A stretch of DNA of 62,662 bases, counting the filler. It is 4 parts of 4 records of this genome, joined end to end, with 100 filler letters (N's around TTAATTAATTAA, not from the genome) between each part and the next. Parts side by side here need not be neighbours in the genome. Positions count along the whole stretch, not along the records: positions 8,900 to 24,370 come from SRR20825019_1640; 3 more parts are not named here. The stretch is one strand, 5' to 3'. Below are positions 8,800-38,058 of the stretch, one piece after another. Made by a program: the position numbers and the translations under genes. The stretch's first letter is position 1; each line of letters opens with the position of its first letter. Below the pieces are notes generated by a model, which was not told the DNA's origin, did no database searches, and saw nothing but the letters and a program-made list of their open reading frames with translations.

Positions 8800-8899
8800 N
8801 NNNNNNNNNNNNNNNNNNNNNNNNNNNNNNNNNNNNNNNNNNNTTAATTAATTAANNNNNNNNNNNNNNNNNNNNNNNNNNNNNNNNNNNNNNNNNNNN
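8800..8899. other. Artificial contig spacer
   Basis: 44 N + TTAATTAATTAA (stops in six frames) + 44 N; abrupt change in GC and gene content. Confidence 0.98.
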
Positions 8900-8966
8900 G
8901 ATCATCAAGGCACTTGGAAGGGGCATTGATAAGGCAAGGGGCACTGGTGAGGACATGGGCTATTGA
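8900..8966 (+). CDS. 3' end of a putative mobilization relaxase (MobB/DUF5712-like), partial at contig start
   Basis: Encodes IIKALGRGIDKARGTGEDMGY*; 58/67 nt identical to 24304-24370. Confidence 0.6.
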
Positions 8967-8991
8967 AACCCAAAAAGTAGGTTGCGCCCTT

Positions 8992-9039
8992 TCGGGTTTT
9001 TGCTTAACGCTTATCTATCGGAACACTACAAAAACCCGA
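8992..9039. other. 11-bp inverted repeat just downstream of the relaxase stop
   Basis: TCGGGTTTTTG (8992-9002) pairs with CAAAAACCCGA (9029-9039), 26-nt spacer. Confidence 0.5.
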
Positions 9040-9336
9040 TAGGATTCATGCGCAAAAGTTGGGGTAAGGATTTGGGGTTCTTGTTTTTAGATTTTCAAAG
9101 AGTTCGGTTTTGAGGGGAGCTTACAAGAAACTAAATTAAGTGTTTTATTTATGGAAGAAATAAAAGCCTCAATTGTCAATAAAAGAGACCTAAAACAATG
9201 ATAAGACTAAAATATTTCTTTAATTTAAATTTTTAAGTAAAAAAATGTCAATGTGAGTAAGATTATTCTTTCTTACCCCGTGCAATGTTATCTAACTTTA
9301 CCTTCTTATCAATATAAGAATGAATTAATATTAATT

Positions 9337-11609
9337 GTGAAATTTAAGTACACGTCTTATTTGTTGATCTTTTCTTGTTTTTGTTTAGCGACTGCCAAAG
9401 AGCATGACTCTTTACAATTGGAAAGCCTGTATAAGAAATACTTAGAGCTTCCTAGAGAGGATGTTCATATACACTTTAACAAAGGGGTTTACCTTAAGGG
9501 CGATAAAATCTGGTTTACAGCCTATATTAAAGAGAGAAACGGATTACTGTCTCTTAACTCTACCACTCAATACTGTTTGCTCTATGATGTAACAGGAAAT
9601 CCAATATCACAAAAGGTGTTACATATTTCCAATGCTAATGCATCCGGTCAATTCGAGGTCAAACCTGAATACACTGCGGGTATTTTATACATTACGGCAT
9701 TCACAAATTGGATGAGAAATTTTGACAAAGAGGATGTATTTATAGGTAAATTAAAACTAAAGGGAGCCGAATCTAATGTCTTGGAATTATCATATGACCA
9801 AAACGCTTACCAAGTTACCATACATGCGGAAGGAGGTAAATTTATCACTCAAACAGTCAATAATTTTGCTTTCAGAATTACAAATTATAATAATAGCTCT
9901 GGCATGGGCAAGTTCAATATTAGGCAGAAATCAAGGGAAGTTTATTTTTTCAAGGCCAAAATGGAAGATGGGGGTATAATTGAAAAGCAGCTTCCAAATA
10001 TTGAAAATGAAGGTGTTACCATCTCAATAAATAATCTAATTGAAGATAGAATATTAATAGAGTTCAGTTCCAATTCAAGCACCTTCCCGAAATTGAAAAA
10101 TAAAAAGTTTCTTTTGACAATTAATCAGGGAGGTCAAATGATAAGAAAATCTTTTACTTATGATAAGGTGGGATTTTCGGTCGAGTTCATGCGTGAAGGT
10201 CTAATGCGCGGTGTCAATATAGTGACTCTTTTTGATCATGATTATAACCCTATTGTTAAGCGTTTGGTTTTTAACAGTATCGAAAATTACCACATAACAA
10301 AAACTAAACTTGTAAAAGCTGCCAAAATGAATGATTCAATAAATTTACTGCTACAACTCTTGGCCAACAAATCCATCAATTCTAGCATCAGTATTTCTGT
10401 TTTACCGGAAAACACAGTGGCAAATTTCAATGAAAAGTCAATAATTTCATCTTTTTTATTGAGCCCTTTTATTCGTGGGGAAATTGATTATTACCTTTCT
10501 TCTGTCAATCGAAAAAAGAAATTCGAGCTAGATTTATTAATGCTTTTACAGAAAGTGAAAAGTCCAATCGATAATGACTTCATTTTTAATCCACCCCAAA
10601 AACAGTTCGAGTATTCTAAAGGAGTCACTTTAAAAGGAAAAGTATACAACGCAAATTATGATTGGGATGAAAAAATACTAATATATCCTACCTCATTTGA
10701 GAATAGAACTTTTACGAAAGTAGACAATAATAAAGATTTTGTTTTTGATAATATATTGGTGTACAAAGGAGATAGTATCAAACTTTCGTTGTTAAACGAA
10801 AAGGGTAAATTAATCAAGCCAGAGGTTTCTTTTGAATTTTCCCCTTTTAAGGAGTATACTGAGCCATTGCCAACAACCGATATACTTAATGACACGGAGT
10901 GTGTTCTTCAAAGACAATTTGTGAACAGATCTAATGATCCGCTAATTTTCGAAAATCTAACAGAACTTGAAAAGGTTTCAGTTTTTGGACAAAGGGACAG
11001 AGACAAACTTAATCATAGATCGGTGCTTACGGGAGGCTTGTTTGAAGGTGTAAAGATTACAAAAAAAGAGATTGAAGAAAATATTCTTCTTTCAAGATTA
11101 TTAAGGAAGTTAGGCTATAAGGTCAGTGCAGGCCCCATTAATGGAAATATTCTTGTCAAGGCCAAGCTGCCAATGAGCAAACCTCCAGTGGTTGTTCTAA
11201 ATGGTTTCCCCATGCGAGAGGGTCTTAGGGATTTCCCGTTAGAGTTAATCGATGAGGTCTACTATGAACATATGGGAACCCATGGGAGTAATGGTGGAAC
11301 GATATATATTTATCAAAAAAGTGGAAGCTTTTCGCGCAAGAACAATGAAGATCAATTCATTAACCTGTACACCGAAGAAGGTTTTGATAGGGAGGAGACA
11401 TATTATGCTCCCAACTATTCATCATACTCGGATGAAGGATTTTTAAATTATGGCGCAATCTATTGGAATGGAAATATAAAAACCGATAATAACGACATAT
11501 TTGAAATTACATTTCCAGATTACGGAAATGATAGGGTCAAACTTTTTTAGAAGGTATGAATACGAATGGTGGACTTATTTATGATTCAATAACCGTTCAT
11601 GTTAAATAA
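9337..11609 (+). CDS. Large Bacteroidota envelope protein (MG2-like N-terminus, TonB-plug-like region); probable frameshift near C-terminus
   Basis: Signal-like N-terminus from GTG 9337; REDVHIHFNKGVYLKGDKIWFTAY, AFTNWMRNF, AEGGKF, GF...YYAPNY and GAIYW motifs. ORF stops at 11550 after a T6 run; another frame continues EGMNTNGGLIYDSITVHVK* to 11609. Confidence 0.6.
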
Positions 11610-11764
11610 TAAACTTCAGAAGTATAGTCAGATTGGTTTTTTAGAAGTGAGTACTATTTTGTTTTCACGTGACCAAATATAAAAGTGTTTAACCCTAGCA
11701 AATTGAAGTGGCATAACCATTAAGTCCGCAAACATGTTTTTTCCTCATTTTAAACCATACAATA

Positions 11765-13966
11765 ATGACCTATAAACCCTTTCCTTTCTATCAGCAATTA
11801 GATCAAATGGATTGTGGGCCTACTTGCTTGAGAATGATAGCCAAATATCATGGCAAATCGTATCCAATTGAGTATTTAAGAAAAGCGGCCAATATTACAA
11901 AAGAGGGGGTTAGCATGGGAGGCATAGCAGAAGCTTCCGAAGCTATCGGATACAGGACACTTGCTGTAAGTTTAAGCTATAATGATTTGATAAAAGAAGT
12001 GCCCTTGCCCTGTATAGCTCATTGGCGACAGCGACATTTTGTCGTCATTTACAAGATAAAAAAGAACAAAATTTATGTGGCAGATCCGGCCCATGGATTG
12101 ATCACATATGAGAAAACAGGATTTTTGAATGGGTGGGTAGGTTCGGATAAGAATGAAGATTCCAACGGATATCTCCTTTTGTTGGAACCGACCCAATTGT
12201 TTTATGATAAAAAATTGGAAAGTAAAAAGGAGTATGGTTTCAAGTTCTTGTTCTGGTATTTTAAACCATATAAAAAGTATATTTTCCAACTGTTCATAGG
12301 TCTTTTTGTCGGCAGTTTGTTGCAATTAATATTTCCTTTTTTAACGCAGGCCGTCGTCGATTACGGTATTAACCATCAGAACCTCAATTTTGTTTACCTC
12401 GTTCTAATAGCCCAATTGACTTTATTTATATCCCAGACAACCGTAGGCGTTATACGAAGTTGGATATTATTGCACATGACAAGTCGGATAAACATCAATT
12501 TGATATCGGATTTTTTGATAAAATTAATGCGTTTGCCCATTTCCTTTTTCGATTCAAAAAACACCGGTGACATTATACAGAGAATTTATGACCATGATAG
12601 AATTCAGGAATTTTTATCGAGCACGACTTTAAATACGCTTTTCTCTTCTTTTAATATTATCGTTTTTGGACTAGTATTAGCATATTATAACATTATGATT
12701 TTCTCTGTTTTTTTTATAGGTTCAATCATATATGTTGTATGGACCTTTTTGTTCCTCAAGAGGAGAAAGGAATTGGACTATAAAAGATTTGACCAGGCGG
12801 CAGACAATCAAAGTAGCATATACCAGTTGATTTCAGGAATGCAGGAAATAAAATTGAACGGTTCTGAACGAAGGCGACGATGGGAATGGGAGAGTATCCA
12901 AATAAAACTTTTTAAAGTTTCTCTAAAAAGTTTGGCACTTTCTCAAACGCAGAATGTGGGCGGACAGTTTTTTAATGAGATCAAAAACATCTTTATAACA
13001 TTTGTCGCTGCCAAAGCAGTAATTGACGGGGATTTTACACTTGGAATGATGCTTTCTGTCCAGTATATTATAGGTCAGTTAAATCTTCCGATCAATAATT
13101 TGATAACTTTTATCCAAACTGGTCAAGATGCTAAAATCAGTTTGGAAAGATTGGAGGAGATTCACTCCAAGAAGGAGGAAGAAGCTAAAGATGAAGATTT
13201 TTTAAGCCAGTTACCCAATAATAGAAGTATTGTAATAAAGAACCTTAGTTTTCGATACGGGGGGAATCAATCACCTAAAGTTTTAGATAAAATAAGCTTA
13301 ACAATCCCAGAAGGAAAAGTTACGGCTATAGTAGGTGGTAGCGGAAGTGGGAAAACAACGCTCATCAAGTTGCTGTTGAAGTTTTATGAACCTACAAAAG
13401 GTGCGGTTTTGATAGATAATGTTGACCTTAAAAATTTTGGCGCCAGCTTTTGGAGAAGAAATTGTGGTACTGTGATGCAAGATGGATTTTTATTTAGCGA
13501 TACCATTTCTAGAAATATCACGGAATCTGATTCAGAAAATCAAATGGATAAAAAAAGATTGATACATGCCGTAAGGGTTGCGAACATTGAAAAGCTGATA
13601 GAACAACTTCCAACTGGTTTCAATACAAAGATCGGAGCAAGTGGAATCAACATCAGCGGCGGAGAAAGACAGCGTATTTTGATTGCAAGAGCAGTTTATA
13701 AAAATCCAAATTATATTTTTTTTGACGAGGCAACCAGTGCATTAGATGCTAATAACGAAAAACAGATTATGGATAATCTCGAAAATTTTTACAAGAATAA
13801 AACTGTTGTTGTTGTCGCTCATCGACTCAGTACGGTAAAAAATGCAGATCAGATTATTGTATTGGATGAAGGTAAAATAGTTGAGAAAGGCACCCATAAC
13901 TCCCTTAGCAAAAAGAAAGGACTATATTATAGCCTGGTCAAAAACCAGTTAGAATTAGGAAACTAG
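11765..13966 (+). CDS. lanT: Peptidase-containing ABC transporter (C39 peptidase + TMD + ATPase)
   Basis: QQLDQMDCGPTCL catalytic Cys, HW..RHFVV His, VADPAHG Asp; GGSGSGKTT, ISGGERQR, FFDEATSALD. Confidence 0.95.
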   Translation: MTYKPFPFYQQLDQMDCGPTCLRMIAKYHGKSYPIEYLRKAANITKEGVSMGGIAEASEAIGYRTLAVSLSYNDLIKEVPLPCIAHWRQRHFVVIYKIKKNKIYVADPAHGLITYEKTGFLNGWVGSDKNEDSNGYLLLLEPTQLFYDKKLESKKEYGFKFLFWYFKPYKKYIFQLFIGLFVGSLLQLIFPFLTQAVVDYGINHQNLNFVYLVLIAQLTLFISQTTVGVIRSWILLHMTSRININLISDFLIKLMRLPISFFDSKNTGDIIQRIYDHDRIQEFLSSTTLNTLFSSFNIIVFGLVLAYYNIMIFSVFFIGSIIYVVWTFLFLKRRKELDYKRFDQAADNQSSIYQLISGMQEIKLNGSERRRRWEWESIQIKLFKVSLKSLALSQTQNVGGQFFNEIKNIFITFVAAKAVIDGDFTLGMMLSVQYIIGQLNLPINNLITFIQTGQDAKISLERLEEIHSKKEEEAKDEDFLSQLPNNRSIVIKNLSFRYGGNQSPKVLDKISLTIPEGKVTAIVGGSGSGKTTLIKLLLKFYEPTKGAVLIDNVDLKNFGASFWRRNCGTVMQDGFLFSDTISRNITESDSENQMDKKRLIHAVRVANIEKLIEQLPTGFNTKIGASGINISGGERQRILIARAVYKNPNYIFFDEATSALDANNEKQIMDNLENFYKNKTVVVVAHRLSTVKNADQIIVLDEGKIVEKGTHNSLSKKKGLYYSLVKNQLELGN

Positions 13967-13969
13967 CTT

Positions 13970-15292
13970 ATGATAAATTTTGAAGAGAGTATTGAGAATA
14001 AGGCCGAGCAATTGGATGAGCGTTCAGTCGAGGTGAAGGAGGTTCTCGGGAAATCACCGAGCTGGGTCATTAGGTGGGGTAATTCGGTGGTTTTCATTAT
14101 TATAGGTATTATAATATTAAGCTCCGCACTAGTCAGTTACAACGATGTGATTCCGGCCACCATTGTTGTTACCAGTAAAAACCCCCCTTTGTATTTGAAA
14201 GCCAAGAGTGAGGGTAGGCTTAGCCATATATTTGTGGAAGCAGGTCAAAGAGTGGTCAAAGGCGATATCCTCGCCATGATTGAGAATACCGCCACTATTG
14301 ATGATATGTTGTATTTGCGGAGTCAAATTGTCAATTTTAGCGCACATATAGAGAATTTGGATTCTTTGCAGCTTAAATATCCCCCATATTTAAACCTTGG
14401 TACCGTCCAGGTAGCCTATGGTGAATTTCGCACGCACTATCAAAACTTTATTTTATTTAATTCTTTGACCCCCAGCCAAAAGGAGTCCAACTTGCTGAGA
14501 AGACAATTGGAAGAACAAAAAGTATTATATGAAAAGCAAAAGCGACAATTGGAAACCTATAGGCAAAGCCTCGAGCTTTCACAAAATAGTTATGACCGTA
14601 ATACGCTTTTATTTGATAAAGGTGTCATATCCAAGGCTGAATACGAAAATGCCACTCAGGACTTTTTAAACAACAAACGACAATATGAAGGGTTTCGGAC
14701 AAGTATGTCAAACACTCAAATTGCCATAGAAAATTATAATAATCTATTGACTAAATCCGATATAGCGGGAACGGAATTCAGAAACAATTATAAACAACAA
14801 TTGAATAATGCATACCAAAGACTAAAAAATGACCTGTTGTTCTGGGAACAACAATTTTTGATCATGAGTCCAATTTCAGGGAAGGTGACACTATTCGATG
14901 TTTGGAATCAATTTCAAAACGTGAATGAAGGCGAGATACTCTTCACGGTGGTTCCCAATGATTTAGAGGAAATCATTGGTAAAGTGGCTTTGCCTATTAG
15001 AAATTCGGGAAAGGTCAAAAAAGGTCAAAAAGTTCTCATAAAACTGGATAATTATCCTTTCGAAGAATGGGGCAGTTTACAAGGTGAGATCGATAATATT
15101 TCCGAAGTTCCCAAACAGGGAGAAAAAGCATATTATACCCTTTATATAAGTATCGATAACCTTACAACAACTTATGATAAAGAAATAGATTTTAAGCAAG
15201 AAATGCAGGGTACTGCAGAAATTATAGTGGAAGAGTTGACCATTCTACAAAGAATATTTTATCAGTTAAGAAAGGTCTTGGACATCAATTAG
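13970..15292 (+). CDS. HlyD-family membrane fusion/secretion protein
   Basis: ERSVEVKEVLGKSPSWVIRWG plus single TM, coiled coil, SPISGKV, GQKVLIKLDNYPFEEWG; 3 nt after lanT. Confidence 0.92.
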   Translation: MINFEESIENKAEQLDERSVEVKEVLGKSPSWVIRWGNSVVFIIIGIIILSSALVSYNDVIPATIVVTSKNPPLYLKAKSEGRLSHIFVEAGQRVVKGDILAMIENTATIDDMLYLRSQIVNFSAHIENLDSLQLKYPPYLNLGTVQVAYGEFRTHYQNFILFNSLTPSQKESNLLRRQLEEQKVLYEKQKRQLETYRQSLELSQNSYDRNTLLFDKGVISKAEYENATQDFLNNKRQYEGFRTSMSNTQIAIENYNNLLTKSDIAGTEFRNNYKQQLNNAYQRLKNDLLFWEQQFLIMSPISGKVTLFDVWNQFQNVNEGEILFTVVPNDLEEIIGKVALPIRNSGKVKKGQKVLIKLDNYPFEEWGSLQGEIDNISEVPKQGEKAYYTLYISIDNLTTTYDKEIDFKQEMQGTAEIIVEELTILQRIFYQLRKVLDIN

Positions 15293-15320
15293 ACACTTGT
15301 AATCACTGGGGCTTGTATAG

Positions 15321-16031
15321 TCACGGGTGAGGTTGATTTCCTGGTGTACTTACAATGAACCTTCTGAATATAAGGTCTTCTATCAAGGATTCTGTTATGT
15401 TTTGAAGCTCCTTTTCCTCCTCCTTATTTGAAATCTCAAAAAGGTTGATAAACTGTTGGTGTACCTCTTTTAGGTTTCTGGGCTTTTCGAATTGTTGAAT
15501 TAAAAAGTACTGGTATTCCGATAAAGGAAATTCAAAAATATTGCTATCCAATTTAACGTCAAAAGTTCCGCTTCTTTCCAAAAGAAAAAAGTTTTCCGTT
15601 TTTTTTGCATTCAAAATCTGTTTTAAATCATAGGGGTTTTGAAAGGGGTCTCGTACAAACCATTTCCAATTTGATACATAAAGATGTACCATTTTATTTT
15701 TGACAAAGACCTCTTGTAATAGTGCGTTAAATTTAGATTTTAGTAGTTTCTCCCTCTCTATATTATAGGATAATTCCAATCTTAAAATATCATCAACATT
15801 ATTTATGGAATCTCTTAGATGGAACTTCTCCTTTTCCAAAAAGAATATTTCTTGAATTCTTTCTCGATCAGATTCTTTAAACGAAGTCCATTGGTCCTTG
15901 AGATTTGAATGCAGCTGATTTATGGCATTTTCCCCTGCGAGATTAAAACTTGTGAAATCCCTATCGAATTTAATCCCAAGGAGTTTGCCAAAGGTATAGG
16001 TTCTATTGAAGTGCTTTGAGGCTAAAATCAT
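15321..16031 (-). CDS. Hypothetical protein with possible C-terminal RRE/PqqD-like winged helix
   Basis: 236 aa; ATGA overlap with upstream gene; C-terminus ends in short strands then LSEYQYFLIQQFEKPRNLKEVHQQF...LIEDLIFRRFI. The RRE assignment is inference. Confidence 0.55.
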   Translation of the reverse strand: MILASKHFNRTYTFGKLLGIKFDRDFTSFNLAGENAINQLHSNLKDQWTSFKESDRERIQEIFFLEKEKFHLRDSINNVDDILRLELSYNIEREKLLKSKFNALLQEVFVKNKMVHLYVSNWKWFVRDPFQNPYDLKQILNAKKTENFFLLERSGTFDVKLDSNIFEFPLSEYQYFLIQQFEKPRNLKEVHQQFINLFEISNKEEEKELQNITESLIEDLIFRRFIVSTPGNQPHP

Positions 16032-16909
16032 TTTTTCAAAAGGGATATTATTCGGGCATGATATTCAGGGTACTCCAATAATAATTGATGTTCCAATTCC
16101 CTACAATACTCAGGAAAATTCTTTGAGAACGAATATAGATGCACATATTTCTTTTTCTTGTACTTGTTCATGAAATTCACTAGGTCCATTGATTTTTTTT
16201 CGTCGCCTTCGAAAAAATGCCTGATTTTAATATTCTTTTTACGAGCCATCGCACTGAACAAATACTGTTCATAGATCATGGCAAACAGTGATCCTTTAAC
16301 GGTTTTGGGAATTCTCCCCAAGTAGGTGTTGATGAAATCAAAAGATTCCTTAACATATTCCTTAAAAAAATCCAGGTCAGTCCCGCCTATTATACCCGCA
16401 TTGCTGGAATTAAATCTCTGATAAGCTCTCAAATCGTCTAGTAGGAGGGGAGGCAGATTTATATTGTGTTCTTTCAAATGGTTCAGGGCAAATTCATAGT
16501 CTCTTTCATCATCGTCCACATGTTGAGAAATCAATCTTGCACTCTCAATGTCATTACTGAATTTTTCCCATATATAAATATCGTTATCCACATGGATGAA
16601 CGGTTCTTTCTGTATACCATAAGTATGCAATTTACCGACCGCCCAAAGCTGTTTCGGGTAATTGTTCAGAGAGTCCAATTCCGTACTGACTTTTTTATAT
16701 GGCAACTGAAGTTGGTCAATTAAAAGTTTTGCTCCCTTATAGTCGGTTACAATTTCTATGTTTGGGTAAAACTTTTTCAAGGTCAAACAACTTAAGGTCC
16801 AACTTATATACTCATATTTTTTCTCTCTCCAACCCCCGAAAGTTTTTTCATTGAAACTCTCATTTTCTTGAGTTGAAGGTTTAGACCAAAAACTTTGTAC
16901 GATCTTCAT
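16028..16909 (-). CDS. DUF6734-like protein; putative nucleotide-sugar (GT-A-like) transferase
   Basis: MKIVQSFWSKP start, WTLSCLTL, LWAVGKLHTY, EPFIHVDNDIYIW (DxD), NAGIIGG, EQYLF, YVHL. Confidence 0.65.
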   Translation of the reverse strand: MKIVQSFWSKPSTQENESFNEKTFGGWREKKYEYISWTLSCLTLKKFYPNIEIVTDYKGAKLLIDQLQLPYKKVSTELDSLNNYPKQLWAVGKLHTYGIQKEPFIHVDNDIYIWEKFSNDIESARLISQHVDDDERDYEFALNHLKEHNINLPPLLLDDLRAYQRFNSSNAGIIGGTDLDFFKEYVKESFDFINTYLGRIPKTVKGSLFAMIYEQYLFSAMARKKNIKIRHFFEGDEKKSMDLVNFMNKYKKKKYVHLYSFSKNFPEYCRELEHQLLLEYPEYHARIISLLKK

Positions 16910-17014
16910 GTCAATAGGAGTAGGATTATTTTATATTTAACAATGTAGTATAATTACTTCTTTTTTTGTATAAAATACTTTTTTTGTGTAAAACTTTTTA
17001 ATAAACCGTTAATT

Positions 17015-17224
17015 ATGAAAAAACAGAAAAATTTAAAGCTGTTTCTTAACAAGCAAAAAATCAGCAGCTTAAGCAATCTAAGCCAACAGAAGTTGTTGGG
17101 GGGACAAAGTTACACCGGCACCTCGCATTGCACTTGCGGTGGAGGAGGGAATGGATCGGAGGCTTGTGAAACACTTGCAGCTTACACTTGCGCATGTACT
17201 ATCCCTGGTCAAGGAATCTGTTGA
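17015..17224 (+). CDS. lanA: Class I lanthipeptide precursor LanA1
   Basis: Leader with LxLxKx5L (LFLNKQKISSL) ending in GG at residues 29-30; 39-aa core with 6 Cys and 9 Ser/Thr. Confidence 0.92.
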   Translation: MKKQKNLKLFLNKQKISSLSNLSQQKLLGGQSYTGTSHCTCGGGGNGSEACETLAAYTCACTIPGQGIC

Positions 17225-17299
17225 TCGACTTCCTTTGTTGACCAGATAAATAATTACTGTTAAGATTCAGTACGTTATTTAATTGTAGAATTTGTGATC

Positions 17300-17354
17300 A
17301 ATGGCTTTTGAAATCACATTGGATTCAATCTGATGTTTAATTTTAAAAGTCATT
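17300..17354. terminator. Long imperfect hairpin between convergent lanA1 and lanC1
   Basis: AATGGCTTTTGAAAT..ACATTGGATT-C-AATCTGATGT..ATTTTAAAAGTCATT pairs with G:U wobbles, followed by a T run. Confidence 0.5.
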
Positions 17355-17400
17355 TTTTATTGCTGCTCCTAGTCGAAACATGCTTATTCCTTAATGGCGC

Positions 17401-18615
17401 CTAACTTATCAAAATGCATTGGTCCCAATTATTGTCTTCTTCGGAAAGATAGTCTACCATTACCAAACCTATACCGGCCACACCTTCGAGCAATGATAGT
17501 TTTGGCACCCATTTGTTTTCCAAACCATTCCATTGCTTGTATCCTGCAAAACCGTCATGGTGAACACTCTTTTTCAATCCATCTTCCATCCAAAAATGAA
17601 ATGCCTCTTTAAATAGTTTGTTGCCGGTTTCTTTAAATATCCTTTTAAAGATAAGTGCATTTCCAAATGATCCATGACAAAATCCCGCATCCAAGACCAA
17701 TGAAGTAGTCGGTGACCTTCTAAATGAGCAATGTTCTAATATTCCAACGGCCTTTTTCTGTAAAGAACTATCATCAATGGCAAAGCCGGTCCTCAACAGG
17801 GATGTTCCTATCCCAAGGTCCCCATAACACCATGCTATTCTGCTATTATATTCAATTTCAGAATTTTCTTCGATCCAATTTGGAAACAAGGATAGGTCGG
17901 TCCTATCCATAGCTTCATGTTCAAGTAGAAATTTTATACCGCCATGCAGAAGCTCTTGCGATTCAATTTTAAAGGCTTCATGTGTGTATAATCTTGATAA
18001 AAAGTCTATAATTCCTGAAATCCCATGGGCAAAACTTAAGTTCGCCCCTTTTCTTTCCTTGGTTACATCTAAAAATGAAAACCAACTTATAGTATCCCCT
18101 TTTCTAATAGCAAGATTTTTTAGGTCATGGATCGATTCCAGAATAATGGCTTCATACTTTTTTTGCAATTCCTTTTTTTCTGTTGCCCTATATCTGGTGA
18201 AAAAGTAGAAGGCATAACCTAGAGCACCATGTAAGAAATCATAATTACCATTTTTAAATTCGATTTTCATTTCATTATGTAAATAATCGTCAAATGGAGA
18301 AAGTAGTTCATCACAATCAATATTGATATATCCTTCTGCATTCAAATGTGAAATTGTCCATGCTAAACCGGCTATACCATTGCAATACGAAGGATGGGTG
18401 TATCCCTGGTTTATTTTCTCGATACTGTGCGAAATCATCTTTATCCCCGATTCCAAATGTTCTTCGCTACCTAAATAATCTGCATAATAAAACTGAAACA
18501 TCGCTATTCCAGCAATTCCGCCTATGCCGCCCAAATTTGGTACAGCGTCGAATCTATTTATTAGCACATCGCTTATCTCACTCAATTTTTCTAAAAATAG
18601 CTGTTTGTTTTTCAT
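17401..18615 (-). CDS. lanC: Lanthionine cyclase LanC1
   Basis: YCNGIAG, YDFLHGALG, NLSFAHGISG, AWCYGDLG, FCHGSFG (Zn ligands Cys, Cys, His), LLEGVAGIGL; start ATG 18615 or GTG 18621. Confidence 0.95.
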   Translation of the reverse strand: MKNKQLFLEKLSEISDVLINRFDAVPNLGGIGGIAGIAMFQFYYADYLGSEEHLESGIKMISHSIEKINQGYTHPSYCNGIAGLAWTISHLNAEGYINIDCDELLSPFDDYLHNEMKIEFKNGNYDFLHGALGYAFYFFTRYRATEKKELQKKYEAIILESIHDLKNLAIRKGDTISWFSFLDVTKERKGANLSFAHGISGIIDFLSRLYTHEAFKIESQELLHGGIKFLLEHEAMDRTDLSLFPNWIEENSEIEYNSRIAWCYGDLGIGTSLLRTGFAIDDSSLQKKAVGILEHCSFRRSPTTSLVLDAGFCHGSFGNALIFKRIFKETGNKLFKEAFHFWMEDGLKKSVHHDGFAGYKQWNGLENKWVPKLSLLEGVAGIGLVMVDYLSEEDNNWDQCILIS

Positions 18616-18849
18616 GCGCACCTATGCAATTTTAAAAGACCTCTAACAAACCATGGTGATTATATATACACGTTTTTAGGCTTATGTTTTATAAACTCGT
18701 TTACATAAACAATAATTTCAATTCAAAGGGCTCTTATAAGGATTCCGATATTTCTTATAGAATTTTTAAGATAAAACCTATAAATTAAGTAAATATATAC
18801 TTATATTGTAGTATAAATCTTAATTAATGTTTAATTTAAATTTTTACAA

Positions 18850-19032
18850 ATGAAAAAAAGAAAAGGCTTAAGCCTCACGTTGAACAAGAAAAAAGTTAGT
18901 GAACTAAGTGTGGCAAGTCAACAAAAAATTATGGGAGGTGCAAGTTATGGCAGTGGCTCATATTGTCAATGCCCAACTCCCTACTGTACACAGACCCAAT
19001 CTCTATCTTGCTCGGGAGGGGCATGTGGATAG
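18850..19032 (+). CDS. lanA: Class I lanthipeptide precursor LanA2
   Basis: Leader LTLNKKKVSEL (LxLxKx5L), GG at residues 29-30; 30-aa core with 5 Cys and 9 Ser/Thr. Confidence 0.92.
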   Translation: MKKRKGLSLTLNKKKVSELSVASQQKIMGGASYGSGSYCQCPTPYCTQTQSLSCSGGACG

Positions 19033-19054
19033 TTGATTTTAATTAAATGTTTTA

Positions 19055-19096
19055 AGTACAAAATAACCGATTTCATAAAATCGGTTATTTTGTACT
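19055..19096. terminator. Perfect 19-bp hairpin, probable bidirectional terminator or mRNA stabiliser after lanA2
   Basis: AGTACAAAATAACCGATTT-CATA-AAATCGGTTATTTTGTACT. Confidence 0.75.
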
Positions 19097-19221
19097 AGTA
19101 ATCAAAGGGGTATTCCCAGCTGACCGACCATTGTGTTTCTCGTAAAACTAGTGAGCATTGAGATATGTTTCTACAACATCATTTTTCAGTTTAAGGTTAA
19201 AAACAAAATCAGACCTTCAGT

Positions 19222-20109
19222 TCATTGTTTGCTTAGTGCTGATTGGGTTTTATAGTATCTAAATAAAAAGTCATAACAGACCATTTCATTCAGCCTGTTC
19301 TTTGATTTAAATAATCTGTTCATCAGCATATGTATGTAACTGCCCAATAAGTTATTTAGTTTCAGCTGATCGTACTTGTCATTTTTGAGTGACAGTATTT
19401 CTTCTATTATCGGTTCCAACGCAATCTGTTTATATTCTAAAACGCTAAAAATAGGTGCATAATCAGGGTTTTCGTTCTGAGAAAAGTTCAGAAAAGAACT
19501 AATGCTGTTTCTCTCTTTTCTATATTTATCATCCAATTGCTTTTTGAGGGGTCTGGACATTCCAAATTCTTTGCCAAATCCTGTTTTGAGATAGTTCATC
19601 AATTCCAACTTGTCATCAAGTGAGTATTTAAAGCCGCTTAATAGCTCATTGATAGATCTTAGCCCAAATAACCAACGTAAATTTTCCCCTTCATTACCCT
19701 CTATCAAATCTAAGAATCTAACCGTTGCTTCACTATCATGGTAAAAAAGACTTTCAGATACTTCCATGGTGTTCAATCCATATCGCTCCAACTCTCGTTG
19801 ATAGGTATCCAATTGTATTTTCCAAACCAAATCCTGCTCCATCAGATCATTCAGTGGACGATAAAGGGTCGAGACCAATATGTTTATATCATTTAGGTCT
19901 TTGAGAAAGAATCGCACCCTAAGATGATGATTTGGGTCTGCATACCGAATAAAAAACCATTTATCAATGATTTGCTTTGAAAGCAATTTATCCGAACATG
20001 GCTTGATAATTTCCGTTAAGATCGTATCGGCCGTTTTATGTCCTGTATATATTTTATAATATACCCAATTACTGCCAATGGCAAAACTACGTTGGATTTG
20101 CTTTCCCAT
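19222..20109 (-). CDS. lanB: Split LanB, glutamate-elimination subunit (Lant_dehydr_C)
   Basis: GSNWVYYKIY, WFFIRYADPNHHLRVRF, YQRELERYG, SYIHMLMNRLF. Confidence 0.93.
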   Translation of the reverse strand: MGKQIQRSFAIGSNWVYYKIYTGHKTADTILTEIIKPCSDKLLSKQIIDKWFFIRYADPNHHLRVRFFLKDLNDINILVSTLYRPLNDLMEQDLVWKIQLDTYQRELERYGLNTMEVSESLFYHDSEATVRFLDLIEGNEGENLRWLFGLRSINELLSGFKYSLDDKLELMNYLKTGFGKEFGMSRPLKKQLDDKYRKERNSISSFLNFSQNENPDYAPIFSVLEYKQIALEPIIEEILSLKNDKYDQLKLNNLLGSYIHMLMNRLFKSKNRLNEMVCYDFLFRYYKTQSALSKQ

Positions 20110-20110
20110 A

Positions 20111-22351
20111 TTAGTCTTTTTTGGTGTTCAATTTACTTCCGTTAAACGCAGAGATTACAATTTGATGGGTGTAATTGCCCATTTCAGATTTGACAACGGT
20201 TTCATCACTGAATAAAAACTCTGTCAGAACAAAGCTCGGCTTACTTTTTACTTCATCCAGCATAACCTGTACAGAAGACATATTCGAGAAGTTTATTAAA
20301 AGCTCCTTATCGTCTTCAATCAGTAGGGCATACTTTGGAAGTTGAAATTTATTGCGTAAAACGAGAATTTTTTGCTTTAAAGAGTCACTTTTTTTATCAT
20401 TCAACAACGAACTGATGTCCTCCTTTTTTAGCCTCCATTTAGCACGGTGTAGGATCAAGTTTTCATATTCGACCCTGGGTATGAAACTTCGGTTGTTTCC
20501 CATATGACTTAAATCAAAATAGAACCCTTTTCTTGTATTCTGTGTTTGCATATCACATAAAAACTGATATATCGGCAACGTACTCCTATAATAGTTGTGG
20601 GCATTGGTCAAGTGAGGGATAACTTCCTTATTTAACTTCTTGGAACGTAGGAAAAGTTTATTGTTCTTAATTGAAATAAACAAATCGTCCAGTGGGATTT
20701 GATTTGAACTGTCTTTATTGGATTTGGCCAAATATGGTATTTCATAATCGCGAAATGATGGGCGCATTAAAATATTTCCAACCCTTGCCTCGGGTAAATG
20801 AATGATTTCAGCAAGTATTTTCTCAGGGTTCATCTCAGTCTCTCTATCGACTATTTTTTGCGTGTAATCATTTATTTTTTTGTCTCCATGACAAAACCGG
20901 CCCAGTAAGTTTGCCGCACTTGAACCACTCATCCCGGCAAAAAGTATTTTTTCGCAATTATCTTCCAATACAATTCTGATCATACCGGATAACGTGTCTG
21001 GAAGGTCATCCCAATTTATCGGGAAATCATCAAAGTCATTGTTGGTCAACACCACTTTCTTCCCATTTGTTTTCTCACAATGAATCAGCTTCTCTTCAAG
21101 AATTTGATGGATTTTGTTATGGACAATAGTGGTCTTACGGTAGAAATCGTCCTGTTGGGGCAGTAGGATATCATCCACCAAAGGATTGAAGTCGCCAATT
21201 ACCCCTCCTTGAATATAGCCAATTCCTGTTTCAACATCCAGAACTTTTGAAAGTTGCATTTCTCTTTCTTCGTAGCGCTCAAGAAAAGCCTCTTTAAATT
21301 TAGATAGATTATCGTCTGTCTTTTGAAGGGTTAGTTTATTCATTAATACCATTCCTCTTTTCAAGGATTTCATAAGGCTAAATGAAAGCTTGTTCTCCTC
21401 GGGCCTCAGCTCCAAATCAGTCTGAAATAAAAATCGGATATCGAAGGGTGTCGGATTGTCCTTGATTTTATCGCTAAGGGAAATGTAGGTGTTCGGCGGG
21501 TTGCACAAGCGTTTATCCAAATCTTTCAACCGCATTCCAATGTCGGTTAATAATTTAACTTCTTCATTGGAGTTTTTTAATTTTTTTAAAACCTCTAAAA
21601 TATGGGACATAAATTCTGGACCCGAAACCGAGGGCTCCAATTCACTTATAAGCAATTGGCTATCCAATAACTCCTCAATAAAACCTTCTGCTACCTCACG
21701 TGATATTTCTTCTTCAATCAGTACTTCGGTAAGTTCTTGAATATTTGCCCCGACCTTTGCCTTGGCAAATATTTTTTGCAGGTAGTCAGAATTTTCAACC
21801 TCGACCACGTGATGCTGCCTGATATTGTTAATATAATAATACTCAACGTATCTTATCTGATCTCCTGTTTGGTAGATACTTGTATTTGGAAAGAACATCA
21901 ATTCTTCACGAATCTGTTTTTTTTTAGAGATATCTTGAGAAAGTGCCACTAGATAATTCATATCCAAACGGGTATGTCTTTTATTCTGGACCGGGCTCGA
22001 ATTCCTTATGGATGTATGATCACCAAAAGACCCTAAACTACAACCTGCAAAAAGACCAAAAGGTGTACAACGAGTGCACATTCTGGTCAGGTATTTAAAA
22101 AATGACAGCCTAACTTTATCTTCTTTAATGGTATCCAGCTCACCTTTCACCCATTTTTCTAACTCAAAGAAAAGAGTTGGAGATGCCAAAAAGCAGGACT
22201 CCTTTATCAAAGGATCATTGAAGCATTCCTTTAAGGCTTCATCGGTGACATATTCATCTTGCGTTAGTTTTTTATAATAGTCAAAACTTAACAAGGGCGT
22301 TCTAAGAACATAGTTTGAGAAAAACTTATAGGGATTCTTATTTTTGTTCAT
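20111..22351 (-). CDS. lanB: Split LanB, glutamylation subunit (Lant_dehydr_N)
   Basis: VLRTPLL, FLASP, KYLTRMCTRCTPFGLFAG, LLGRF, RVGNILMRP, IPHLTNAHN, PRVEY. Confidence 0.95.
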   Translation of the reverse strand: MNKNKNPYKFFSNYVLRTPLLSFDYYKKLTQDEYVTDEALKECFNDPLIKESCFLASPTLFFELEKWVKGELDTIKEDKVRLSFFKYLTRMCTRCTPFGLFAGCSLGSFGDHTSIRNSSPVQNKRHTRLDMNYLVALSQDISKKKQIREELMFFPNTSIYQTGDQIRYVEYYYINNIRQHHVVEVENSDYLQKIFAKAKVGANIQELTEVLIEEEISREVAEGFIEELLDSQLLISELEPSVSGPEFMSHILEVLKKLKNSNEEVKLLTDIGMRLKDLDKRLCNPPNTYISLSDKIKDNPTPFDIRFLFQTDLELRPEENKLSFSLMKSLKRGMVLMNKLTLQKTDDNLSKFKEAFLERYEEREMQLSKVLDVETGIGYIQGGVIGDFNPLVDDILLPQQDDFYRKTTIVHNKIHQILEEKLIHCEKTNGKKVVLTNNDFDDFPINWDDLPDTLSGMIRIVLEDNCEKILFAGMSGSSAANLLGRFCHGDKKINDYTQKIVDRETEMNPEKILAEIIHLPEARVGNILMRPSFRDYEIPYLAKSNKDSSNQIPLDDLFISIKNNKLFLRSKKLNKEVIPHLTNAHNYYRSTLPIYQFLCDMQTQNTRKGFYFDLSHMGNNRSFIPRVEYENLILHRAKWRLKKEDISSLLNDKKSDSLKQKILVLRNKFQLPKYALLIEDDKELLINFSNMSSVQVMLDEVKSKPSFVLTEFLFSDETVVKSEMGNYTHQIVISAFNGSKLNTKKD

Positions 22352-22358
22352 TTTTTTG

Positions 22359-23576
22359 TTAACTAATCATTAGACATTCGTCCCATTTAGTGGTATTCTC
22401 GGAAAGGTAATCGATGATCACTAAACCTATTCCAGCTATTCCTTCTAATAAAGAAAGCTCAGGAGACCACTTCTGTTGTGATGGATACCATTGCTTGTAA
22501 CCACAATAACCATCCTTGTGGGTCGCTTTTTGGATGCCATCCTCAATCCAAAATTTATATGAATCTTGAAAGGTCCTATCAGATTTTTTTCTATGTAGGT
22601 TATTGTAAATCAATGCGTTTCCGTAAGATCCATGGCAAATGGAAGCATCGTTCACTAAAGTGTCTTTAGGTAATTTTCTTTTTGTTGTCTGTTTTAAAAC
22701 TCTTAGGGAGTAGTTCATTAATTGATCATCCGAGATGGATTCTCCCACGCGTAAAAGCGAAAGGCCGATTCCTAGATCTCCGTAACACCATGCCACCCTT
22801 CCATTGTAATCTATCTTTTCACCAGGCTCTACCCAACTGGGAAAAAGTGCAAAATTGTTTGAATCCTTATTTTCTAAGTTGATTATGTAGCTGACACCTC
22901 CTTGAATTAAGGCTAAAGTGGTTTTTTTTTCAATTCCGGTATGGTATAGCCGTGCCAAATAATTAAGTATGCTGGAGATCCCATGGGAAAGGGACAGATT
23001 ATAGCCTTTGTTCTTTTTGTTTATGTCAAGAATAGACTCCCAAGCTAAACCACCACTATCAGTTTTGATTGATAAATCGTTAAGATAGGCTAAAGACTCC
23101 AATAGATAGGCCTTATAGCGTTTTTTTAAGTCGACATCCCCAGTGCTTTCAAATCTACTCAAAAAGTAAAATGCATAACCCAGTGCTCCATGTAGGAAAT
23201 CATAGTTGCCAATCTTGAATTCAGCCAACATGTAGTTATAGAGATATTCATCAAATGGAGAAAGGAGCTCATCACAATCTAACTGGATAAAATTAGAGTT
23301 GTTCAAATGTTGAATGGTCCAGCCGAAACCGGTGATACCAGTTGAATAAGTAGGATTGGAATAGCCTGAGTTAATTTTTTCAATACCAAATGAAAGCATT
23401 TCCAGACCAATATTTGAACTGTCCCCATCCTCTAGATATTTTGAGTAATAAAACTGGAACATGGCCAATCCCGAAAGCCCTGCCAAAACTCCCAATTCAG
23501 TTTGACTCGTATATTTTGAAACAATGATTTCGCTGATATCGTCCAAAGTCTTTTTAAAATGTTTAGTATATTTCAT
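22359..23576 (-). CDS. lanC: Lanthionine cyclase LanC2
   Basis: YDFLHGALG, NLSLSHGISS, AWCYGDLG, ICHGSYG, LLEGIAGIGL; 7 nt upstream of lanB. Confidence 0.95.
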   Translation of the reverse strand: MKYTKHFKKTLDDISEIIVSKYTSQTELGVLAGLSGLAMFQFYYSKYLEDGDSSNIGLEMLSFGIEKINSGYSNPTYSTGITGFGWTIQHLNNSNFIQLDCDELLSPFDEYLYNYMLAEFKIGNYDFLHGALGYAFYFLSRFESTGDVDLKKRYKAYLLESLAYLNDLSIKTDSGGLAWESILDINKKNKGYNLSLSHGISSILNYLARLYHTGIEKKTTLALIQGGVSYIINLENKDSNNFALFPSWVEPGEKIDYNGRVAWCYGDLGIGLSLLRVGESISDDQLMNYSLRVLKQTTKRKLPKDTLVNDASICHGSYGNALIYNNLHRKKSDRTFQDSYKFWIEDGIQKATHKDGYCGYKQWYPSQQKWSPELSLLEGIAGIGLVIIDYLSENTTKWDECLMIS

Positions 23577-23841
23577 TTGAAAACCATTTTTGACATTTTT
23601 GTATAGTAAAATTCTTTCTTTTTTTAAAGGAATTACTTATTTGTTGAAAATATAAAATAAATTACTATTAGTCTTCATTGAAAGGATGAAAAATGTAGTT
23701 ATTATCATTCCAATAACTGTAATAATTTATTTATCTCTATCTAGACTTGAGTTTTTGAGCAATTAGGTCTTATAGAAAATGCAAATAGCAAACAACAAGC
23801 CTCGGACTTTTGTTATTTGGTGCCAGGCATCAACTCAATTA

Positions 23842-23982
23842 TTACAATACTTTGATTATTACAACCATGAAAGAAGATAACAATCCATCGACTATGAAAG
23901 ACCTATTGATCTATTTAAAAGAGCGGCTTGATAATTATGTTAGTTTTGTAGAGAAACTGTCCTAAAGATCGGGGTATCTACA
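23842..23982 (+). mobile_element. IS3-family remnant: transposase C-terminus plus right terminal repeat
   Basis: Hand translation LQYFDYYNHERR*QSIDYERPIDLFKRAA* resembles the IS3 YN..R.H.SL...P tail. It is followed by CTGTCCTAAAGATCGGGGTATCTACA, ending in the IS3-type CA-3'. Confidence 0.7.
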
Positions 23983-23983
23983 T

Positions 23984-24370
23984 ACCTATACACTTTCCCC
24001 AATGGCAAAGCACAAAGCATCCGAAGTGGAACTGAATCGAAAGACGGTCAAGAGAGGGTTACAATTTAATCGGGACAGTTTTTACCAAGCAGCCGAATAA
24101 ACCTTTGACAGGACAATGGGTTTCAAGAGGAACTATGTGGAATCCTATGCAGGGAGAAAGGCCCATGCAAAGGAACCGGGGAAGTTCTTTGCCCAAGTGA
24201 TGGGATTGCCCACCAAGGAAAAGGACATGGCTTTCAAACTTCTTAAGACAATGGGGGTCAAGGCTCCGAGTATACCTACCAATAAGGTGCAAATGGCGGC
24301 CAAGATCATCAAGGCACGTGGAAGGAGTATCGATAAGGCCAGGGGAGCGGGTGAGGACATGGGCTACTGA
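23984..24370 (+). pseudogene. Truncated putative mobilization relaxase (MobB/DUF5712-like), C-terminal fragment
   Basis: One frame reads TYTLSPMAKHKASEVELNRKTVKRGLQFNRDSFYQAAE*TFDRTMGFKRNYVESY...IPTNKVQMAAKIIKARGRSIDKARGAGEDMGY*. Internal TAA at 24098-24100; begins right after the IS3 end. Family assigned from recalled similarity. Confidence 0.6.
24304..24370 (+). repeat. Imperfect direct repeat of 8900-8966
   Basis: 67 nt, 9 mismatches, mostly third-codon positions. Confidence 0.9.
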
Positions 24371-24470
24371 NNNNNNNNNNNNNNNNNNNNNNNNNNNNNN
24401 NNNNNNNNNNNNNNTTAATTAATTAANNNNNNNNNNNNNNNNNNNNNNNNNNNNNNNNNNNNNNNNNNNN
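24371..24470. other. Artificial contig spacer
   Basis: 44 N + TTAATTAATTAA + 44 N. Confidence 0.98.
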
Positions 24471-37958: not shown

Positions 37959-38058
37959 NNNNNNNNNNNNNNNNNNNNNNNNNNNNNNNNNNNNNNNNNN
38001 NNTTAATTAATTAANNNNNNNNNNNNNNNNNNNNNNNNNNNNNNNNNNNNNNNNNNNN
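37959..38058. other. Artificial contig spacer
   Basis: 44 N + TTAATTAATTAA + 44 N. Confidence 0.98.

Follow-up and report, generated by a model that had tools for sequence, protein, structure and literature searches.

Sugar residues are known in several groups of peptides that the ribosome makes and that are modified after translation (RiPPs), namely the glycocin-type peptides, whose glycosyltransferases belong to the SunS family (GT2), NAI-112 and cacaoidin. Two-part RiPP enzymes that depend on a RiPP recognition element (RRE), such as TglH/TglI, the lasso-peptide pair B1/B2 and PqqD/PqqE, are also known already. We know of no class I lanthipeptide of Bacteroidota that bears a sugar, and none was found in the literature searched. 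The subject of the present analysis is a gene for a protein of the uncharacterised family DUF6734, together with its partner gene orf236, in a window of 62,662 nucleotides (the whole stretch of DNA analysed, which consists of contigs joined end to end, with positions counted along the whole). Both genes lie on the contig at positions 8900-24370, which holds an entire class I lanthipeptide cluster of the Bacteroidota type. In our opinion, the evidence leans, if only slightly, towards a leader-guided, GT8-like transferase pair that would decorate the lanthipeptides of this cluster, most likely at Tyr3 of their cores. The elements on which this reading depends are as follows.

16028..16909, minus strand: DUF6734 protein of 293 amino acids, predicted GT-A fold, putative GT8-like transferase (PF20508, AlphaFold2 model)
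15321..16031, minus strand: orf236, 236 amino acids, helical N-terminal part and predicted RRE-like C-terminal domain (AlphaFold2 model)
16910..17014: A+T-rich spacer of 105 bp between the DUF6734 operon and the divergent lanA1, presumed promoter region
17015..17224, plus strand: lanA1 precursor, 69 amino acids (NCBIfam NF038153 lant_leader_L1a)
18850..19032, plus strand: lanA2 precursor, 60 amino acids (NF038153, below the cut-off)

The 293-amino-acid open reading frame (ORF) matches PF20508 (DUF6734) from end to end, its residues 1-290 falling on profile positions 1-286 of 286 with an E value of 9.5e-99 and a score of 330.8 bits against a cut-off of 27, and by this profile comparison it is a true full-length member of the family, far beyond chance. 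The preliminary description of the locus, made from the letters alone, had called the protein DUF6734-like, a wording that can now be strengthened. It had also placed the ORF divergently from lanA1, and the start positions, 16909 and 17015 with 105 bp between them, agree with this; the strings it had quoted are each present in the translation, as LWAVGKL, FIHVDNDIYIW, NAGIIGG, YEQ and KYVHL, and the motif residues in them are the conserved ones of the family. Conservation was judged from an alignment of 48 members with 37-71% identity, whose invariant positions include K93, Q100, H106, D108, D110, G172, G175, G176, E214, H257 and K263; at least 90% of the members have N170 and Q215. These residues form the elements H106-x-D108-x-D110, N170-x-G172, E214-Q215 and H257-x5-K263, and the invariant D108, D110, H257, K263 and K93, standing at putative metal- and phosphate-ligand positions, display in the alignment the pattern of a conserved active site.

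A word-indexed search gave 228 homologues at E<=0.001; PF20508 was found in all 120 of the matches listed, and the named homologues among the matches listed were Bacteroidota without exception. In the searches the family occurred solely in Bacteroidota-type loci and in one Chlorobiota metagenome-assembled genome (MAG; L035), in natural-product clusters. Bacteroides thetaiotaomicron was the sole carrier of a DUF6734 gene among 14 well-known control genomes. No family for the protein was found in NCBIfam or PHROGs.

The AlphaFold2 model of the DUF6734 protein has a predicted local distance difference test score (pLDDT) of 94.4 and a predicted template modelling score (pTM) of 0.92, and consists of strands alternating with helices, with D108-x-D110 directly after the strand 104-107. 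A Foldseek search of the PDB gave 137 matches at E<=0.001, foremost retaining GT-A enzymes of the families GT8, GT6 and GT24, led by XXYLT1, glycogenin-1 and -2, LARGE1, GlyE, alpha-1,3-GalT, LgtC and UGGT, with the sugar-phosphate transferase CpsY at rank 6. On re-alignment with VIA, Z scores of 13.8 for glycogenin (root-mean-square deviation 3.4 A over 202 residues), 12.4 for LgtC and 12.4 for GNPTAB were obtained. A second VIA search, which was independent of Foldseek and covered 48,161 representative chains, gave glycogenin (13.1), LgtC (12.3), Skp1 alpha-GalT (12.3), WbbM (12.1), LARGE1 (11.8) and UGGT (11.4), with nucleotidyltransferases at 10.9 at most. The best VIA matches cover residues 1-293, and the first 8 representatives are glycosyltransferases of the GT8/GT24-like group. 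Because the three structure searches agree, and because GT8 structures are the nearest structural neighbours of the model, the protein very probably has a GT-A (nucleotide-diphospho-sugar transferase) fold closest to GT8; an AlphaFold model followed by structure comparison was the check that had been set beforehand.

Among described enzymes, the best whole-length matches are the GT8 members glycogenin (GYG1/GYG2), Neisseria LgtC and the xylosyltransferase domain of LARGE1 (Z 13.8-12.3 over 202-226 residues), and DUF6734 has in common with them the order of elements: K/R, a DxD that follows a beta strand, NxG, D/E-Q and H-x5-K. In GT8 enzymes the DxD is a metal-binding motif, and the His and Lys residues likewise have a role; the window protein has a DxD after the fourth core strand as well as a C-terminal His with a Lys six residues on. 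Unlike GT8 proteins, DUF6734 has an additional helical insertion between DxD and NxG, comes paired with an RRE-like protein, and has neither significant sequence similarity to GT8 nor a PF01501 match. When 12 DUF6734 proteins and 5 GT8 proteins confirmed by Pfam are aligned together with MAFFT, which is not a statistical test, D108 and D110 fall on the GT8 DxD in 5 of 5 rows, H257 on the GT8 His in 5 of 5, G172 on the Gly of NxG in 5 of 5, N170 on its Asn in 4 of 5, and K93 on an Arg in 3 of 5. This co-alignment is consistent with distant homology to GT8 and is not proof of it. The protein is of GT8 type by predicted fold, without GT8 membership by sequence, and since significant sequence similarity is lacking, the likeness is to be understood as one of structure and motif order. 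To this extent the GT8-like identity proposed at the outset has stood, without a significant sequence match to GT8 or another glycosyltransferase family of Pfam. The glycocin-type SunS enzymes are alike in the proposed role, that of a RiPP-cluster glycosyltransferase decorating a precursor, but differ in that none of the 48 DUF6734 members has a GT2 (Glycos_transf_2) match at E<=10, and in that the nearest folds of DUF6734 are of the retaining GT8 type, whereas SunS is of the inverting GT2 type.

The start codon of orf236 overlaps the stop codon of the DUF6734 gene (ATGA, 16031-16028), which suggests that the two are translationally coupled. No family for orf236 was found in Pfam (E<=0.01, a sub-threshold Kyano_Gp96 match aside), NCBIfam or PHROGs, and the PqqD (PF05402) and DUF2063 profiles gave no match to it in the Pfam scan. 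The AlphaFold2 model of its product (pLDDT 88.2) has strands at 108-120 and 147-170 and helices at 172-222. In VIA its whole length is closest to 3dee, a DUF2063 protein (Z 10.7), and to chain A of the TglHI holoenzyme (10.1), while the C-terminal part, residues of about 90-235, matches NisB (8.9), TbtB (8.6), MibB (8.0), MadB (7.6), MccB (7.3), leader-bound TbiB1 (Z 7.1, 87 of 88 residues) and PqqD (5.8). The regions concerned in the latter group are leader-binding (RRE) modules of RiPP enzymes, and RiPP proteins also predominate in the weak Foldseek list for orf236. The model contains the three-stranded sheet and the three-helix winged helix that make up the RRE fold; for a domain of such small size these Z values are modest, and the protein is therefore called RRE-like (with a PqqD-like winged helix) and not a proven RRE.

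By its likeness to TglHI chain A, TbiB1 and PqqD, orf236 recalls the two-part RiPP enzymes mentioned above, but its predicted catalytic partner is a GT-A protein and not an iron enzyme, a protease or a radical SAM (S-adenosylmethionine) enzyme, as in those systems. It also differs from known RRE partners in having no sequence-family match, and its leader binding is putative. As is usual for RREs, the domain occurs as a stand-alone protein, fused to an enzyme or fused to a LanC-like protein. This was seen among relatives collected by a pattern scan with one genome per species, which confirmed at least 563 relatives in the first 600 matches to the pattern; the best 80 of the loci were analysed, and their genes were labelled by phmmer and hidden Markov model searches with the window proteins and with Pfam-checked proteins of the loci L025 and L032. 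An orf236-type domain stands next to DUF6734 in 51 of the 80 loci by script, and in at least 55 when L001, L016, L018 and L019 are added, which the script missed because the gene caller had dropped orf236 or because lanA intervenes; another limit is that 6 of the 80 loci stop short of any downstream gene. The 51 partners found by script comprise 13 stand-alone genes of about 230 amino acids, one form of 323 amino acids, 36 C-terminal domains of LanC-like proteins of 570-690 amino acids, and one domain (L012) fused to DUF6734 itself. In ten further loci DUF6734 is long (411-554 amino acids), and hhalign aligns its C-terminal extension with the RRE-like part of orf236 at a probability of 63% (E 6.8e-5).

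The presumed substrates are encoded near this pair. LanA1 has a leader with LxLxKx5L and a GG site, followed by the core QSYTGTSHC..., and LanA2 has a leader of the same type before the core ASYGSGSYC...; the counts given in the preliminary description, 9 Ser/Thr in each core, 6 Cys in LanA1 and 5 in LanA2, and Tyr3 in both, are borne out by the translations. The class I leader model NF038153 scores LanA1 at 22.6 bits, above the cut-off of 22, and LanA2 at 21.5, slightly below it. According to Walker et al. (PMC7268733), the LxLxKx5L pattern with GG is a trait of Bacteroidetes class I precursors. LanA2 was aligned with 16 relatives. Its core differs in one residue from that of an Allomuricauda MAG peptide (L006:9680-9862), although identity between the DUF6734 proteins of these loci is only 71%; the peptide seems to be constrained much more strongly than its enzymes.

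A tyrosine early in the core follows the presence of DUF6734. Short ORFs with an LxLxKx5L-type leader, GG and a core that contains Cys and is at least 12 residues long were collected, identical cores being counted once. Tyr was found in core positions 1-4 of 31 of 44 peptides (23 of 27 loci) with DUF6734, against 4 of 27 peptides (4 of 18 loci) in LanB loci free of DUF6734, this control set being of one family only; the Fisher p values, 6e-6 for peptides and 3.5e-5 for loci, overstate the case because related sequences were counted. Beyond core position 4 the Tyr content of the DUF6734 set is 5.2%, from which early Tyr would be predicted in about 19% of the peptides, and 70% was observed (about 3.5 times more). 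The Tyr-bearing peptides span the near clade of Flavobacteriaceae, Kordia, Cytophagales, Saprospiraceae and a Bacteroidia MAG, and come from several cluster architectures. The short, fixed distance from leader to Tyr fits a tethered, ruler-like enzyme. Glycogenin itself glucosylates a tyrosine, a specificity that is not automatically transferable to DUF6734. The argument of the preliminary description that spare Ser/Thr hydroxyls would be the target found no support; the early core Tyr and the RRE-like partner are what co-varies.

Not included in this count are four Tenacibaculum loci that have no LanB or LanC nearby (L043:9691-11272, L076:9690-11269, L077:9699-11287 and L080:9699-11287). They encode a Cys-rich peptide of 75-76 amino acids, whose leader is of another kind and whose GG is directly followed by Tyr; its gene lies immediately upstream of that for a DUF6734 protein of 427-441 amino acids with an RRE-like tail. 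These GG-Tyr peptides may form a modified-peptide family of their own.

From these data we infer a catalytic activity, a sugar donor, the peptide as acceptor, a Tyr site and an order of steps, which could be as follows. The RRE-like domain of orf236 would bind the leader of LanA1 and LanA2 and thereby hold the first core residues at the active site of DUF6734, which would hold a metal with D108, D110 and H257 and bind a nucleotide sugar through it. The transfer would join the sugar as an O-glycoside to a residue beside the leader-core junction, most likely to Tyr3; the thioether rings would then be made by the split LanB together with both LanC enzymes, and LanT would cut after GG and export the peptide. 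The parts of this scheme are of unequal strength: that DUF6734 is an active transferase of the nucleotide-diphosphate-sugar (NDP-sugar) type is probable, that a peptide is its substrate is rather likely, and Tyr as the modified residue is a tentative proposal. We consider doubtful the wider reading that DUF6734 and the orf236-type domain are generally leader-guided, glycogenin-like tyrosine O-glycosyltransferases with an RRE-like ruler acting on a Tyr 1-4 residues past GG, that the window cluster would yield the first class I lanthipeptides of Bacteroidota to carry a sugar, and that the module has been reused in the GG-Tyr loci and in those with nonribosomal peptide synthetase (NRPS) genes. 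A prediction of the complex of DUF6734, orf236 and LanA1, with the peptide as partner, gave a score of 0.25 (mark 0.34) without controls and counts neither way.

Apart from the limits of the p values, of the control set and of the orf236 Z scores given above, a number of observations weigh against the proposal of a leader-guided glycosyltransferase. In Pfam, a threshold as lenient as E<=10 gave no glycosyltransferase family, PF01501 included, for the 48 members, and among PDB sequences both phmmer and the profile of 48 sequences gave chance-level matches with E of at least 1. An hhalign comparison of the DUF6734 profile with 5 PF01501-confirmed GT8 proteins gave a probability of 0.18%, with a GT8 profile that was thin, GT8 proteins being scarce in the sampled genomes (1 of 21, 2 of 41 and 1 of 31); the sole stretch it aligned was that with K93 and the DxD. 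In the MAFFT alignment E214-Q215 lies off the GT8 DQ, and K263 falls on a Lys in 2 of 5 rows. In a protein atlas the nearest clusters are unnamed, and clusters partly with PF01501, PF03407 or PF11051 score 0.90, which is a lead only. Foldseek with the orf236 model gave nothing at E<=0.001, and neither the ORF list nor the Pfam scan contains a sugar-nucleotide biosynthesis gene on the contig. Tyr was present in 22 of 32 peptides within 1.5 kb of DUF6734 and in 9 of 12 lying farther away, without a difference, and the assumption that, within the loci, peptides with Tyr lie nearer to DUF6734 than peptides without it was rejected. To the same side belong the closeness of other structural classes, the peptides without early Tyr and the NRPS loci, which are considered below with the alternatives they favour.

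The best surviving alternative, which we hold to be unlikely, retains an active GT-A transferase acting on the peptide, but with another chemistry, such as transfer of a sugar-1-phosphate, in the manner of Stealth/GNPTAB-type enzymes, or of a nucleotide-derived group, or with a Ser, Thr or Cys site, Tyr being a mere recognition element. The structural distances leave room for it, since GNPTAB (Z 11.1 and 12.4 in the two VIA comparisons), CpsY (10.2) and MobA, GlmU and similar nucleotidyltransferases (9.5-10.9) lie only 1-3 Z units below GT8, Stealth-type sugar-phosphate transferases being within 1-2 units; yet the first 8 representatives are all glycosyltransferases, and DUF6734 co-aligns with GT8 in the H-x5-K element and in the DxD. 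As regards the site, 13 of the 44 peptides in DUF6734 loci have no Tyr at core positions 1-4, some having Phe or Trp instead, and 9 Ser/Thr stand against 5-6 Cys in each core of the window, but the enrichment of early Tyr over composition speaks against this alternative.

The second alternative follows from the contexts in which the family occurs, and we regard it as less likely still: the DUF6734/orf236 pair could act on an NRPS product, a carrier-bound intermediate or an envelope component (self-protection), and not on a ribosomal peptide, its presence in different peptide clusters being a matter of mere recruitment. Of the 80 loci, 26 have a LanA-type peptide, LanB or LanC, 25 have NRPS genes, 8 have only an exporter combining a C39 peptidase with an ATP-binding cassette (C39-ABC), and 21 have none of the tested hallmarks, the last group also being compatible with a non-peptide substrate. 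NRPS loci typically comprise genes for a thioesterase, an ABC transporter, a C-A-T-C (condensation-adenylation-thiolation-condensation) synthetase, DUF6734, a LanC-like fusion protein and a phosphopantetheinyl transferase, and in the 25 of them no GG-leader peptide was found by the leader pattern. As NRPS loci are about as many as lanthipeptide loci, the family is not RiPP-specific; a lanthipeptide is not needed, and a ribosomal peptide is perhaps not needed either. Hence the RiPP association of the homologues, predicted at the start, holds in the form of a strong link to peptide natural-product clusters, and fails as an exclusive link to RiPPs. Against a non-peptide substrate in the window stand the distance of 100-350 bp between lanA and DUF6734 in most loci of the clade nearest to it, the predicted fold of the partner, which is of the RiPP leader-binding type, and the co-variation of early Tyr with DUF6734 across lineages, also in clusters without LanB.

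That DUF6734 is catalytically inactive and has the role of a scaffold or of a chaperone within a lanthipeptide synthetase complex would agree with the lack of a sequence match to active glycosyltransferase families and of donor-sugar genes in the cluster, but it is very improbable given that D108, D110, H257, K263 and K93 are invariant in the 48 members down to 37% identity, the window protein included.

The NRPS loci are represented by L025:3079-15445, L032:8709-19340 and 23 more, among which are L020, L027, L031, L033, L034, L036, L037, L040, L046, L048-L050, L052, L053, L060 and L064. In them DUF6734 is followed by a protein of 590-690 amino acids with a LanC-like N-terminal and an orf236-like C-terminal part, and an acyl-CoA dehydrogenase gene is present too. 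This association was unexpected and raises the question of a role for the LanC-like/RRE-like/GT-A trio in a non-ribosomal pathway.

In 301 sampled genomes of Flavobacteriaceae, LanB was present in 27, DUF6734 in 16 and both in 9, and DUF6734 was found within about 10 kb on either side of 2 of 28 LanB places. Such a distribution is what one would expect of a tailoring gene: DUF6734 is associated with clusters and optional in them. The window cluster resembles the pinensin-type class I clusters of Bacteroidetes in the split LanB, LanC, the LxLxKx5L...GG leader and the C39-ABC exporter, and the presence of DUF6734 distinguishes it from most of them.

DUF6734 is not mentioned in the literature searched. 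As regards lanthipeptides, Bacteroidetes and glycosyltransferases, the accessible parts of PMC10352776 and PMC7268733 contain no such enzyme, and the bacteroidetocin paper PMC6671954 has none of the searched terms. What appears to be new is that a DUF6734 protein of predicted GT8-like fold is combined with an RRE-like partner and with class I lanthipeptides of Bacteroidota, Tyr being a possible site; this combination is not in the literature searched, supplementary tables aside. If the proposed function is true, an uncharacterised family with the numerous relatives counted above would receive a function, a structurally distinct, GT8-like and RRE-dependent glycosyltransferase would be added to RiPP biosynthesis, and a subset of the uncharacterised lanthipeptides of Bacteroidota would be glycopeptides. 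A leader-guided, site-selective enzyme of this kind would also be of interest for peptide engineering.

The other genes of the lanthipeptide cluster and the joints of the window are the following.

9253..11550, plus strand: orf765, 765 amino acids, no Pfam or NCBIfam family
11765..13966, plus strand: LanT, C39 peptidase-ABC exporter, 733 amino acids (PF03412, PF00664, PF00005)
13970..15292, plus strand: HlyD-type membrane fusion protein, 440 amino acids (PF13437, PF13533)
17401..18621, minus strand: LanC cyclase a, 406 amino acids (PF05147, E 7.8e-45)
19222..20109, minus strand: split LanB, elimination domain, 295 amino acids (PF14028, E 2.7e-72; TIGR03891, E 3.2e-73)
20111..22351, minus strand: split LanB, glutamylation domain, 746 amino acids (PF04738, E 5.5e-133)
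22359..23576, minus strand: LanC cyclase b, 405 amino acids (PF05147, E 4.1e-43)
8800-8899, 24371-24470 and 37959-38058: runs of N (paired 44-N) joining contigs

The cluster has all that defines a class I lanthipeptide locus, namely LanB (PF04738 and PF14028), LanC (PF05147 twice) and LanA with a class I leader, and LanT is expected to cleave the LanA peptides after the GG site. Relatives of orf765 were found by phmmer at the edge of similar clusters in L009 and L010, and it is possibly a component of the cluster with a part in export or immunity.

The G+C content is 34-37% on the lanthipeptide contig and 51-65% on the remaining contigs. The nearest DUF6734 proteins have 99% identity (from a metagenome contig) and then 71% (Muricauda/Allomuricauda and Aquimarina). 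Because of these closest relatives and of the contrast in G+C content, the contig most likely comes from a Flavobacteriaceae organism other than the source of the remaining window; probably its origin is different, mis-binning being one example of how this may arise. The region 15321-17224 has no match in the nearest genome, which has 44% of the window k-mers in common.

Finally, two features of related loci deserve mention. Two or three DUF6734 genes stand in tandem in L030:9106-11796, L038:8196-10894, L079:6248-10876, L054:10001-11855, L062:9068-10900 and L023:124-1902; these are lanthipeptide clusters with cores of the type SY.., HSYY.. or NDPY.., usually with one LanC-like/orf236-like gene after the tandem, and the additional copies may serve for several sugars or several sites. 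In the Ascidiimonas-type loci L013:9662-9997 and L014:9662-9997, an ORF of 111 amino acids is conserved directly upstream of DUF6734, and by eye its product bears a likeness to a LytTR-type DNA-binding domain.

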